Of a stretch of 56,236 bases of DNA, positions 38,268 through 39,383 are shown one piece after another (the stretch's first letter is position 1; each line of letters starts with the position of its first letter). The position numbers and the translations under genes were made by a program. The notes under the pieces are model-generated. The model searched no databases. It saw only the letters and a program-made list of their open reading frames with translations, and was not told where the DNA came from. This DNA comes from a virus, in IMG/VR virus record IMGVR_UViG_3300035497_000528; one strand, given 5' to 3'.

Positions 38268-38300
38268 AAGAGGGCTTATATTTATAAGCCCTCTTTTTTA
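38268..38300. terminator. bidirectional terminator aaaagagggcttatatttataagccctctttttt
   Basis: perfect 11-bp stem flanked by A-run and T-run; ends the tRNA array and the minus-strand desulfurase gene. Confidence 0.75.
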
Positions 38301-39383
38301 TATTTGTCTATAAAAATCTAATAAATATTGAATTTCTTCTACAGTTTGTTTACATTCATCTAATGTATTATATATATCTGTGGTTATTCTTATTGAAGAT
38401 TCAGCATCACCAGGATCCATTCCACCAGCTTTAAATATGGTAATAAGTTCTGGTTCTCTTACTTTTGTCTTAGGAATTGGTCTTACACAAATTCCACCTC
38501 GTTTTTCTACAAAGCTTTCAGAACTACATGCGCTTCCAGTAGAAACACAAATATCTTTTTCAGAGAGTAAATTCTGTAATTCAGTACCATTCATATACCA
38601 AAAGCTAATATTTACATTATTTGATGCTCGAAATTCTTTATCTGGACCATTTAAACGAGAATAAGGAATTTTTGTTAATTCATCAATTAAATAATCTCTT
38701 AATAGGATATTATGTTTTTTATTCTCTTCTAAATTACTTAAATTTTTACGCAAAGCTACAGCCATTGCTAATGCTAATCCAGAGCAAGGTGTTCCACCAG
38801 TAACGTCGCCGCCCCAAATAAGAGATCTTACCGGCAATAGTCTTCGATTAATAATTAAACATCCAATACCTCGAATTCCATTGAACTTATGAGCTCCAAA
38901 AGCTAACAAATCAATACCAGACTTTTTAAAATTAAATTCCATGTGACCAATACCCGCAGTACCATCGCAAAAAATTAAATCTTCTTCATGTTCTCTTTTT
39001 GGAATTTCATAAATTTCTCCGTAAATATTATTTACTAACATTTGAACATATCCATTTTTATCTGGATTGTCAACTGGCGAGAAGGCCATAATAGGTTTTA
39101 ATACTGCACTATGTTCATATTCATTATAAATAATATTACAATTATTATCTCTAAGAATTTGAATTGCCCAGTTACAAGCCTCAGTTGCGCCACTTACAAA
39201 AAATACCTCTTCAATATCACACCCTATATCCTCAGCAATCATTTGTCTTGCTTTTTCAAGATCTTTATTTGCTTTTATTCCAATTATGTGAGTTGAATGC
39301 GGATTTCCAAAATTACTATTTTGAAAAGCTTCAATCGCTTCTGGAAATGGTCGTGTTGTTGCATTATTATCTAAATATATCAT
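38298..39383 (-). CDS. cysteine desulfurase (class V aminotransferase, NifS/IscS-like)
   Basis: N-terminus MIYLDNNATTRPFPEAIEAF, HSTHIIGIKA, FVSGATEACNWAI, PLP-lysine context AFGAHKFNGIRGIG, C-terminal active-site region STGSACSS; 361 aa; only minus-strand gene in this half. Confidence 0.75.
   Translation of the reverse strand: MIYLDNNATTRPFPEAIEAFQNSNFGNPHSTHIIGIKANKDLEKARQMIAEDIGCDIEEVFFVSGATEACNWAIQILRDNNCNIIYNEYEHSAVLKPIMAFSPVDNPDKNGYVQMLVNNIYGEIYEIPKREHEEDLIFCDGTAGIGHMEFNFKKSGIDLLAFGAHKFNGIRGIGCLIINRRLLPVRSLIWGGDVTGGTPCSGLALAMAVALRKNLSNLEENKKHNILLRDYLIDELTKIPYSRLNGPDKEFRASNNVNISFWYMNGTELQNLLSEKDICVSTGSACSSESFVEKRGGICVRPIPKTKVREPELITIFKAGGMDPGDAESSIRITTDIYNTLDECKQTVEEIQYLLDFYRQI

Follow-up and report, generated by a model that had tools for sequence, protein, structure and literature searches.

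Dedicated desulfurases of Bacillus subtilis pass sulfur directly to their thiouridine synthetases, from NifZ to ThiI and from YrvO to MnmA (PMC5372739). In Escherichia coli, lambda yield is controlled by how IscS sulfur is shared out between tRNA thiolation and Fe-S assembly, and it falls when this sulfur is diverted to Fe-S assembly (PMC3296357). Both s4U8 and cmnm5s2U34 are present on phage tRNAs (PMC13191261). The sulfur modifications s4U8 and s2U34 influence tRNA stability, decoding and frameshifting, and phages with many tRNA genes rely on host enzymes for tRNA modification.

Viral iscS genes are on record from rumen, marine and gut viromes. In rumen viromes, no auxiliary gene occurred on more contigs than iscS, which was read as Fe-S assembly (PMC5704599); Fe-S assembly is the default reading of viral iscS in the virome literature. 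Desulfurases go unmentioned in a review of 224 cultured jumbo phages (PMC7824862) and in a 2026 review on tRNA modification in viral replication (PMC13191261).

Here we describe a desulfurase gene next to a tRNA array in a 56,236-nt stretch of phage DNA (the window). The phage is a large gut phage with a genome of ~175-195 kb; complete relatives include IMGVR_UViG_3300043105_000140 (175.6 kb), IMGVR_UViG_3300045988_122850 (195.8 kb) and ENA ERZ27287170 k141_87816 (195.4 kb). The hosts of its clade are probably Firmicutes, judging from MAG bin labels, an SH3_3 + NlpC/P60 lysin and sigma-A-type promoters; among the representative genomes, four MAG contigs with host labels were assigned by binning to Clostridia, Eubacteriales or Staphylococcaceae. 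An earlier note on this DNA had called phage desulfurases uncommon. This is true of deposited phage records, of which 47 out of 50,697 match the desulfurase (best 34% identity, none close or annotated), but relatives occur on at least 385 viral stretches of IMG/VR, and rumen viromes carry such genes (PMC5704599). Hence, viral desulfurases are not rare and iscS is already catalogued as an auxiliary gene in viromes; the novel element here is the linkage of viral desulfurases to tRNA genes.

A predicted type I cysteine desulfurase with altered PLP contacts

The gene product is predicted to be a type I (NifS/IscS-like) cysteine desulfurase, and by sequence it belongs to a non-canonical, phage-restricted clade (the 'A/G' clade). 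The gene and its main residues are:

38298-39383, minus strand: desulfurase coding sequence, 361 aa, ATG start, TAA stop
38886-38888, minus strand: codon of K166, the PLP-binding (Schiff-base) lysine in the motif GAHKF, aligned with IscS K206
38526-38528, minus strand: codon of C286, the catalytic persulfide-forming cysteine in STGSACSS, aligned with IscS C328 and invariant
38457-38513, minus strand: subclade-specific 19-residue insert FVEKRGGICVRPIPKTKVR in the mobile catalytic-cysteine loop
38487-38489, minus strand: codon of C299, a second conserved cysteine within the insert, 13 residues after C286

We found that the protein matches Pfam Aminotran_5 (PF00266) at 2.7e-41, with 142.2 bits against a cut-off of 21.5, and that its best NCBIfam model is NifS (TIGR03402), at 172.8 bits and below the cut-off of 530.75. 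The IscS models were both missed (TIGR02006, 139.9 versus 643.2 bits; PRK14012, 138.1 versus 548 bits), and PRK02948, which we take to be the Bacillus-type desulfurase model, scores 87.7 bits, below NifS. All NCBIfam equivalog cut-offs are missed widely. The AlphaFold model has a pLDDT of 91.5 and a pTM of 0.90, and Foldseek aligns it to 1ecx, the nearest structure, with a TM score of 0.84 and to NifS, IscS and NFS1 structures with scores of 0.81-0.86; annotated viral examples in BFVD reach 0.78-0.84. Hence, by Pfam, AlphaFold and Foldseek, the protein has the fold of a class V, fold-type I PLP enzyme, in agreement with the class V cysteine desulfurase proposed in the earlier note.

That note had also raised the chance of another class V identity, such as a selenocysteine lyase, and models of such enzymes score far below NifS. 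Identity as the selenocysteine lyase SclA is ruled out by a score of 26.7 bits against a cut-off of 525, and a type II identity by 86.6 versus 475.1 bits for SufS and 46.5 versus 607 bits for CsdA. Reading the sequence directly, we found the type II motif RxGHHCA absent from the protein. DndA itself is ruled out by 130.2 bits against a cut-off of 480 and by the lack of dnd/ssp partner genes in every context searched. It is extremely improbable that the enzyme donates sulfur for phosphorothioate modification of phage DNA in the manner of DndA/SspA: the N-terminal 100 residues do resemble DndA (130 bits with its model) and match the solved dndA and SspA structures (3vax and 6m4j), but the score is far below the cut-off, and no gene of DndB-E or SspB-D type (PAPS-reductase-like, SMC-like ATPase) is found in the window or in the relatives' flanks. 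DndA and SspA are themselves NifS-type enzymes.

With the E. coli IscS sequence, identical to PDB 1p3w, as the alignment reference, the following IscS/phage pairs are conserved: H104/H91, N155/N119, D180/D140, H205/H165, K206/K166, T243/T198, C328/C286, R354/R332 and T76/T67. The lysine of the H-K motif with its histidine (K166, H165), the pyridine-N aspartate (D140) and the ring-stacking histidine (H91) are invariant in 55 aligned sequences, and the type I loop cysteine (S-x-G-S-A-C, C286) and the substrate-carboxylate arginine (R332) are both present. The alignment thus retains the PLP lysine and the active-site cysteine, whose loss would have spoken against a desulfurase. For unsaturated pairs among close relatives, dN/dS is 0.04-0.10, which indicates strong purifying selection over the whole protein. 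Pseudogene decay is ruled out by the intact frame, the invariant catalytic residues and this dN/dS, and residue conservation together with dN/dS indirectly supports desulfurase activity.

Two canonical PLP contacts are replaced: IscS Q183 (O3') is A143 and IscS S203 (phosphate) is G163. Both substitutions are fixed across the phage clade, and distant viral copies and bacterial homologues retain Q (or N) and S. In addition, E156 (IscS numbering) is replaced by Ile, fixed in a narrow subclade. With two PLP contacts replaced and the equivalog cut-offs missed, desulfurase activity may be altered or weak.

The loss of two PLP contacts and the remodelling of the catalytic loop led us to consider an altered-function or regulatory class V enzyme, one that uses another substrate (selenocysteine for selenouridine/selenophosphate supply, cystine or another thiol) or mainly titrates a host partner by binding. 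The Ala and Gly fixed in the clade, the Ile and the C299 insert fixed in the subclade and the missed equivalog cut-offs are consistent with such a change, and NifS-type enzymes generally accept selenocysteine. However, every residue needed for desulfurase chemistry is invariant, the whole protein appears to be under strong purifying selection, the SclA score is far below its cut-off, and the stacking histidine is followed by Ser, not by the Asp that is characteristic of eukaryotic selenocysteine lyases. We regard an altered function as very unlikely.

The gene had been described as full-length. This fits in a loose sense: canonical NifS/IscS proteins are ~25-40 residues longer, and the phage protein has internal deletions, lacks a C-terminal tail and carries the 19-residue insert. 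The deletions remove ~24 residues of the large domain, part of the IscS ~105-150 region is missing, and model secondary structure and our reading of the alignment suggest that the deleted ~24 residues correspond to an edge strand and a helix. IscS residues ~376-404 are absent, so that the phage protein ends ~30 residues past R332, versus 51 residues in IscS. At ~345-360 residues, the clade enzymes represent a naturally minimised type I desulfurase.

The insert is confined to the subclade of this phage (at least 54% identity). Its core G-[GH]-[IL]-C is conserved, and the flanking insert residues are variable. Over residues 281-310, pLDDT falls to 61-71, and it is below 50 only at 286-288. The altered PLP contacts and the loop cysteine of the subclade are of potential interest to enzymologists.

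Predicted transcription unit and the adjoining tRNA array

The features around the gene are:

24785-38264, plus strand: array of 27 tRNAs, including Lys-UUU, Glu-UUC and Gln-UUG (ARAGORN)
38192-38264, plus strand: tRNA-Cys(GCA), last of the array (ARAGORN)
38266-38297, no assigned strand: putative bidirectional intrinsic terminator, a perfect 14-bp stem flanked by an A run and a T run
39393-39400, minus strand: Shine-Dalgarno sequence AAAGGGGG, 9 nt upstream of the ATG, read from the sequence
39408-39436, minus strand: perfect sigma-70-type promoter TTGACA-N17-TATAAT, 12/12 consensus match
39438-39466, plus strand: divergent promoter-like site TTGATT-17-TG-TATAAT facing the downstream block, a consensus match only
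39939-45150, plus strand: RNA-associated block of a DUF2828/DUF7788 protein, a major-vault-protein-like protein and a Thg1-like tRNA 5'-end polymerase, given as context only

The window holds 18 perfect TTGACA-N17-TATAAT sites, versus 0.02 expected. Apart from the desulfurase promoter, which stands alone in the remaining ~49 kb, they are confined to the early region (17 sites at 192-7083). At its other end, the palindrome at 38266-38297 fills the gap between two genes, touching the desulfurase stop codon on one side and separated by 1 nt from tRNA-Cys on the other. The earlier note had given the gene its own bidirectional terminator; a perfect 14-bp palindrome with A/T runs makes this plausible, for the desulfurase as well as for the tRNA array. 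Judged by these signals, the desulfurase is an insulated single-gene unit with its own promoter and terminator. It would be read from a host-type sigma-70 promoter of the early-gene class, and its transcription would stop at the hairpin that also closes the tRNA array.

The inverted, insulated layout is kept in ~190-kb relatives with 64-65% protein identity, in which the promoter and terminator sequences differ. A relative, L001, has a 14-bp A/T-flanked hairpin of different sequence at the same position and a divergent promoter pair too. Since the GC content equals that of the flanks and the layout is kept at 64-65% identity, a recent horizontal insertion is ruled out as the cause of the inversion. 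As for the claim of a lone minus-strand gene, credible neighbour genes from ~12 kb to 56 kb are indeed all on the plus strand, and within this region GC skew is negative only in the 38-40 kb bin; however, other minus-strand ORFs occur in the window at 9667-10987, likewise a region of reversed skew.

ARAGORN finds the 27 tRNA genes counted previously, and Rfam adds a 28th, interrupted tRNA-like element at 38061-38184. The 3' CCA is encoded by none of the 27. Around the desulfurase, the window carries genes for RNA ligase, polynucleotide kinase, cREC_REC, Thg1, a nucleotidyltransferase and YqeY, and by these predicted neighbours the desulfurase is placed inside a tRNA repair and maturation island. 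The DUF2828/DUF7788 gene recurs 3.6-6.1 kb from the desulfurase in the relatives L001, L004 and L010; its protein found no match in a sequence search of solved structures.

tRNA linkage among viral relatives and candidate roles

Taking lineages as 50% identity clusters and one control gene family as the baseline, we found a tRNA gene within 5 kb of the desulfurase at 74 of 90 viral loci and in 6 of 14 lineages, versus 3 of 80 loci and 2 of 19 lineages for the control metallophosphoesterase. The enrichment over the control is ~four-fold by lineages and ~twenty-fold by loci, and at the lineage level Fisher p = 0.042 and binomial p = 0.002 at the control rate. Hence, the association with tRNA genes is beyond chance relative to this one control family.

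The linkage is seen in lineages of distinct sequence, among them large phages whose enzymes are of the canonical type (L080/L083 and L081/L082). In the relative L004, tRNA genes of the same strand flank the ORF on both sides, with gaps of 28 nt and 74 nt and no terminator. In temperate-size phages, the 21-kb locus has no tRNAs other than those 0.4-4.3 kb upstream of the gene on its own strand, and in GC-rich temperate relatives the gene order is tRNA(s), an HU-like gene, the desulfurase, two small ORFs and an integrase.

These layouts bear on whether the gene is generic cargo for sulfur/cysteine metabolism or lysogen fitness, with a linkage that is positional only because both desulfurase and tRNAs accumulate in a plastic, early-expressed cargo region. 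The temperate relatives, with the gene two small genes upstream of the integrase, show the position typical of prophage-end cargo, 8 of the 14 lineages have no tRNA linkage, and the identities of the linked tRNAs vary. Against this, the linkage recurs in distinct lineages, including the large phages L080/L083 and L081/L082, its frequency is several-fold above that of the control gene, the L004 ORF is embedded between tRNA genes, and the desulfurase in the window is surrounded by tRNA repair genes rather than metabolic cargo. We consider generic cargo unlikely. If the linkage is positional only, nothing sets the desulfurase apart from the auxiliary metabolic genes of this kind that are already known from viromes.

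We propose instead, as a tentative reading with somewhat less than an even chance, that an active, streamlined and self-scheduled phage desulfurase supplies sulfur for host thiolation of phage tRNAs. Such a role in tRNA thiolation is plausible. By homology, PLP held by K166 would bind L-cysteine, C286 on the mobile loop would accept the sulfur as a persulfide with release of alanine, and the persulfide would then be handed to an acceptor protein. Early in infection, as the linkage and the literature suggest, the added sulfur mobilisation would let host thiouridine synthetases thiolate the phage tRNA pool, with a supply spared from the competition with host Fe-S assembly for a shared desulfurase. 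If the gene is early-expressed and tRNA-linked, the phage could itself control the split of sulfur between tRNA thiolation and Fe-S.

Two acceptors are candidates. ThiI would make s4U8, which alone among the thiolations would apply to every linked tRNA, and MnmA would make s2U34 where the tRNA is Lys, Glu or Gln. The earlier note had drawn its tRNA link from the adjacent array and had pointed to s2U34. The link itself gains support from the linkage (74 of 90 loci, control 3 of 80), but the s2U34 argument is not favoured: in other phages, the linked tRNAs are mostly Gly, Met, Thr and Trp, which are no s2U34 substrates, and Gln or Glu occur in some only. Because of this dominance of Gly, Met, Thr and Trp, we set the s2U34-specific form aside.

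Partner genes of the TusA/MnmA/ThiI type, which the earlier note had proposed to look for elsewhere in the genome, were sought with Pfam and PHROG in the 53 other window ORFs of at least 90 aa judged likely coding, and with precomputed Pfam matches in the flanks of six relatives. With the recovered extensions of ~12 kb (~8 kb upstream and ~4 kb downstream), the search covers part of the ~175-195 kb genome. We found no ThiI, MnmA, TtcA, TusA or rhodanese, and no NifU, SufE/U, radical-SAM or Dnd/Ssp gene, in the 56-kb window, the ~12 kb extensions and the flanks of the six relatives. Similarly, THUMP, tRNA_Me_trans and NifU_N domains have no match in the window or flanks, so that neither the adjacency to ThiI or MnmA of a NifZ/YrvO-like role nor a NifU/IscU pairing is seen there. 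Among the 150 nearest representatives, the longer proteins carry fused Rrf2, Cro/C1 HTH or Se/S-carrier domains; a fusion to a thiouridylase (ThiI/MnmA) is found in none of the 150, which is uninformative for the tRNA hypothesis. An SDF-family transporter lies near the desulfurase in one lineage only (L004), and as a cysteine/cystine supply partner it was rejected, with DctA, SstT and GltP far below cut-offs.

The partner search also bears on Fe-S supply, in which the phage desulfurase would feed a host NifU/IscU or Suf scaffold during infection. Possible Fe-S clients of host or phage are radical-SAM enzymes, anaerobic ribonucleotide reductase activase, nucleases and primases. Several points favour this role: the best NCBIfam model is a NifS of the NifS/NifU type, near relatives are fused to Rrf2/IscR-type regulators, and the closest bacterial-type homologue, P0079, the only one examined with its context, adjoins NifU_N, an Fe-S scaffold. 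The IscS C-terminal tail contacts IscU. However, this tail (~376-404) is absent from the phage enzyme, and no scaffold, radical-SAM or recognisable Fe-S client is found in the window, the extensions or the relatives' flanks. Fe-S supply also leaves the tRNA linkage unexplained. From the literature, the reading of viral iscS as Fe-S assembly in the rumen virome paper (PMC5704599) stands for it, and the lower lambda yield on diversion of E. coli IscS sulfur to Fe-S (PMC3296357) stands against it. On balance, Fe-S supply is a rather unlikely but serious rival.

A bolder form of the tRNA-thiolation role, which we rate as distinctly unlikely, is that the A/G clade is a dedicated 'viral tRNA thiolation booster' travelling with phage tRNAs and that the C299 loop of the subclade is a built-in persulfide relay. 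The relay could pass sulfur directly to host thiouridylases that lack a rhodanese domain, or free sulfide unaided, and would bypass host carrier proteins and the competition from Fe-S assembly. If true, no phage had previously been known to encode a component of a tRNA sulfur-modification pathway, and type I desulfurases would gain a new mechanistic variant.

Comparison with known systems

The NifS-like protein of T. maritima (1ecx) is the best solved-structure match both by sequence (4e-39) and by structure (TM 0.84). With 1ecx and the NifS family TIGR03402, the phage enzyme shares the fold-type I PLP architecture, the HK motif, the SxGSAC loop and a C-terminus that is short relative to IscS. 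It differs from 1ecx in being 29% identical with ~24 large-domain residues deleted, and from both in having Ala and Gly at the PLP-contact Gln and Ser of IscS and a 19-residue insert with an extra cysteine. Unlike the NifS/NifU type, the phage gene has no adjacent NifU, and the protein scores 172.8 bits against the equivalog cut-off of 530.75.

With E. coli IscS and human NFS1, the phage enzyme has the catalytic residue set and the fold in common (TM 0.81-0.86), and the same persulfide mechanism on a mobile loop is expected from its sequence. In contrast to both, it lacks the C-terminal ~30 residues and part of the IscS ~105-150 region, and in contrast to iscS, the gene is phage-borne, outside an isc operon and behind an early-type promoter.

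Known viral 'NifS-like' or iscS genes, from gut Siphoviridae metagenome phages, African swine fever virus and giant viruses, encode class V desulfurase-like proteins, as the phage does; earlier reports of them describe no tRNA linkage, A/G substitutions or loop insert. The functional model for our proposal is the B. subtilis pairs NifZ-ThiI and YrvO-MnmA, in which transfer takes place without Tus carriers or a rhodanese domain (PMC5372739). There, the desulfurase gene adjoins its thiouridylase gene; the phage gene adjoins tRNA genes instead.

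The desulfurase gene and its protein

The earlier note had placed a cysteine desulfurase gene on the minus strand beside 27 tRNA genes, and we verified both the ORF and the ARAGORN array. The features of this region are:

24785-38264, plus strand: 27 tRNA genes, all on the plus strand (ARAGORN)
38061-38184, plus strand: 28th tRNA-like element (Rfam RF00005, 35.7 bits), missed by ARAGORN
38192-38264, plus strand: tRNA-Cys(GCA), last of the array (ARAGORN)
38266-38297: perfect 14-bp palindrome with A and T runs either side, between tRNA-Cys and the desulfurase stop codon
38298-39383, minus strand: desulfurase ORF, 361 aa, ATG start, TAA stop
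39436-39408, minus strand: sigma-70 promoter TTGACA-N17-TATAAT (12/12 match), 25 nt upstream of the desulfurase ATG
39939-45150, plus strand: in a row, a DUF2828/DUF7788 protein, an 814-aa major-vault-protein homologue (shoulder and vault repeat) and a Thg1-like 3'-5' polymerase

The description as a lone minus-strand gene holds from ~12 kb to 56 kb, where every other credible gene is on the plus strand and negative GC skew is confined to the 38-40 kb bin, but the window also has minus-strand ORFs at 9667-10987. Likewise, the count of 27 tRNAs stands for ARAGORN, but Rfam adds the interrupted element at 38061-38184. This element is class II tRNA-Tyr(GUA)-like, interrupted by ~41-48 nt on the 5' side of its anticodon stem-loop and with a duplicated 5' half of the anticodon stem (CCGGA at 38089, CUGGA at 38130). 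An intron-bearing tRNA and a duplicate in decay are both possible; elsewhere the window has a normal tRNA-Tyr (25420-25504). The 27 tRNA genes all lack an encoded 3' CCA and therefore depend on a CCA-adding enzyme. The tRNA-Ile(UAU) at 31224-31312 is unusually long (89 nt), and between tRNA genes lies an ORF (36326-36625, plus strand) for a basic protein of 99 aa that contains the cysteine run CSCCCCS and for which we found no family match.

The desulfurase protein matches Pfam Aminotran_5 (2.7e-41), and its top curated model is NifS (TIGR03402, 172.8 bits versus a cut-off of 530.75); it reaches none of the desulfurase equivalog cut-offs, NifS included. Its PHROGs match, phrog_12787, is annotated 'unknown function', and the best solved relative by sequence is the T. 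maritima NifS-like protein 1ecx. An AlphaFold model from a 55-sequence alignment was confident (pLDDT 91.5, pTM 0.90), with low scores in the catalytic loop only, and resembled NifS, IscS and NFS1 structures (TM 0.81-0.86). Aligned with E. coli IscS (sequence identical to PDB 1p3w), the protein keeps Thr67, stacking His H91, Asn119, pyridine-N Asp D140, His165, Schiff-base Lys K166, Thr198, catalytic Cys C286 and substrate Arg R332. Since these catalytic residues are conserved, the losses that the earlier note said would undo its assignment, of the PLP lysine or the active-site cysteine, are not seen, nor is the protein identified as a different class V aminotransferase. Homology supports a PLP-dependent type I cysteine desulfurase whose catalytic apparatus appears intact. 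Among close relatives, dN/dS is 0.04-0.10 at dS 0.1-0.6; by this measure the gene is kept by selection.

The protein departs from canonical enzymes in several ways. It belongs to a clade (345-362 aa), here called A/G, in which two PLP-contacting positions of IscS are changed (Gln183 to Ala, Ser203 to Gly); more distant viral copies retain the Gln and Ser. The clade lacks the IscS C-terminal tail and ~24 large-domain residues, which the model's secondary structure suggests are an edge strand and a helix, so the protein, described earlier as full-length, falls somewhat short by family standards. In the subclade to which the window's enzyme belongs (54-65% identity), there are also a change of Glu156 to Ile and a 19-residue insert (F291-R309) four residues past the catalytic Cys; a second cysteine, C299, lies within its conserved G-[GH]-[IL]-C core, and the remaining insert residues are variable. 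When 1.84 billion cluster representatives were searched exhaustively, the subclade with the insert formed a single 50% cluster and the next match was down to 45% identity. An altered-substrate or titrating protein is a possible alternative reading of the gene. The viral contigs carrying A/G enzymes have integrases, anti-repressors and tail genes, and the clade was found on just 4 contigs among 185,579 representative prokaryotic genomes, all of them from MAGs and carrying Clostridia, Eubacteriales or Staphylococcaceae labels. Hence, the A/G clade looks phage-restricted.

Expression signals and neighbouring genes

The desulfurase promoter is followed by a Shine-Dalgarno sequence, AAAGGGGG, before the ATG. 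We found 18 exact copies of the TTGACA-N17-TATAAT pattern in the window versus 0.02 expected by chance; 17 lie at 192-7083 ahead of small ORFs, most with a TG-extended -10, and the desulfurase promoter is the sole copy in the other ~49 kb. With about one perfect promoter per small ORF, 192-7083 is an unusually regular run of single-gene units and looks like an early or host-takeover region. The simplest reading of these motifs is that the desulfurase belongs to the early promoter class used by host RNA polymerase. The palindrome at 38266-38297 bears out the earlier claim of a bidirectional terminator, which it plausibly forms; together with the inverted orientation, it would insulate the desulfurase from tRNA and repair gene transcription. 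The same layout recurs with differing sequences in ~190-kb relatives (64-65% identity), which carry two divergent promoters (10/12, extended -10) and, directly after the stop codon, an A/T-flanked hairpin of 14 bp. In two other sublineages the desulfurase is co-oriented with its neighbours; in L004, the ATG lies 28 nt after the end of one tRNA, another starts 74 nt past the stop, and the desulfurase-tRNA locus has no terminator.

The partner genes whose presence the earlier note proposed to check (TusA/MnmA/ThiI-like) were not found: ThiI, MnmA, TusA, NifU, radical-SAM and Dnd/Ssp genes are absent from the window, from ~12 kb of sequence adjoining it (~8 kb on the upstream and ~4 kb on the downstream side) and from the flanks of six relatives. 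We found no support for a DndA-like role. The window is rich in genes for tRNA/RNA maintenance (RNA ligase, polynucleotide kinase, two metallophosphoesterases, cREC_REC, a phrog_388 nucleotidyltransferase, YqeY, Thg1, NADAR, and the DUF2828/DUF7788 and major-vault-protein genes listed above), and it encodes a sigma factor and an SH3_3 and NlpC/P60 lysin. The genes at 39939-45150 may form a module for RNA surveillance or repair; no solved relative of the DUF2828 protein is detectable by sequence, and its gene is again near the desulfurase in L004, in another relative (L010) and in a ~190-kb relative (L001). The host is probably a member of the Firmicutes, judging from the sigma-A-type promoters, the strong Shine-Dalgarno sequence, the lysin domains and the labels of the MAGs.

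IMG/VR also includes a nearly complete genome closely related to the window phage (IMGVR_UViG_3300043105_000140, 175.6 kb), with a metallophosphoesterase that shares 90% identity with the one in the window; it would permit annotation of this lineage's whole genome. L004 also encodes an SDF-family (PF00375) membrane symporter within its tRNA array (12818-14011), 1.7 kb downstream of the desulfurase; it scores far under the DctA, SstT and GltP cut-offs, and could conceivably supply cysteine, cystine or serine. L004 and L010 read TAG as Gln, with in-frame TAG codons in the desulfurase gene (2 in L004 10001-11089, 5 in L010 10001-11101) and suppressor tRNA(CUA) genes nearby; L010 also encodes a UUA-anticodon tRNA. 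In the window phage the code is standard (TAG stop in 5/51 ORFs).

Linkage to tRNA genes across viruses

At least 385 IMG/VR stretches encode relatives of the desulfurase. We ran ARAGORN on ~±10 kb around 90 viral loci, drawn from 80 IMG/VR loci (79 with a protein long enough to cluster) and 11 from other collections, and found a tRNA within 5 kb of the desulfurase in 74/90. Since related phages share synteny by descent, desulfurases were clustered at 50% identity into lineages, of which 6/14 were tRNA-linked, including large phages with canonical-type enzymes (e.g. L080/L083 and L081/L082). For a metallophosphoesterase of the window, run through the pipeline as the control, linkage was seen in 3/80 loci and 2/19 lineages. 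Hence, because the lineage counts exceed the control (Fisher p = 0.042; binomial p = 0.002 at the control rate), the linkage is real against this one control family.

In 56/61 loci of temperate-size GC-rich phages, the sole tRNAs, 2-5 in each locus, share the strand of the desulfurase and are 0.4-4.3 kb upstream of it, in three arrangements (Gly-UCC/Glu-UUC; Gly-CCC...Trp/Gln-UUG; Thr-CGU/Gly-UCC/Met-CAU), usually with an HU-like gene in between; in several arrangements an integrase is a few genes downstream. A conserved cargo module is seen in L007, L019, L040 and ~55 more IMG/VR loci (L017-L075) of such gut phages: 2-5 tRNAs, an HU-like DNA-binding protein and the A/G desulfurase, followed in several by small ORFs and the integrase. 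That the desulfurase is a cargo gene whose linkage to tRNAs is purely positional ranks second among the rival explanations, after Fe-S cluster supply.

Proposed role and comparison with known systems

We infer that the desulfurase would be made early and autonomously during infection and would pass persulfide sulfur to host thiouridylases, by which phage tRNAs would be thiolated. The earlier note had stressed s2U34 substrates, to which the tRNA linkage is not specific; we rank s4U8 above s2U34 because only s4U8 thiolation could fit all linked tRNAs. A 746-aa giant virus protein annotated as tRNA 4-thiouridine(8) synthase (BFVD A0A3G5A4B1, Harvfovirus sp.) shares part of its fold with the desulfurase, over 151 aligned columns; should it prove to be a ThiI-desulfurase fusion, viruses would offer a separate line of support for a desulfurase-s4U8 connection.

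The main rival to tRNA thiolation is that the phage enzyme supplies Fe-S clusters: the closest bacterial-type homologue examined adjoins NifU, and this is the default literature reading of viral iscS (PMC5704599). Viral copies are already on record, with iscS the auxiliary gene found on more contigs than any other in rumen viromes (PMC5704599) and BFVD NifS-like proteins annotated in gut Siphoviridae metagenome phages, ASFV and giant viruses. Hence, the description of phage desulfurases as uncommon is limited to cultured phages. No desulfurase is mentioned in a review covering 224 jumbo phages (PMC7824862), and in the papers examined we found no account of tRNA linkage or early-promoter wiring of viral desulfurases, of a phage-restricted A/G clade or of a loop insert bearing a conserved second cysteine. 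The kind of gene is thus already known, here with variant features.

Published work provides the rationale for the proposed tRNA role. Direct sulfur transfer from dedicated NifS-type enzymes is known in B. subtilis, where NifZ serves a rhodanese-less ThiI and YrvO serves MnmA (PMC5372739). Both s4U8 and cmnm5s2U34 have been found on phage-encoded tRNAs, presumably made by host enzymes (PMC13191261). Lambda yield in E. coli is set by how TusA and IscU compete for sulfur from IscS, with tRNA thiolation pro-phage and Fe-S assembly anti-phage (PMC3296357).
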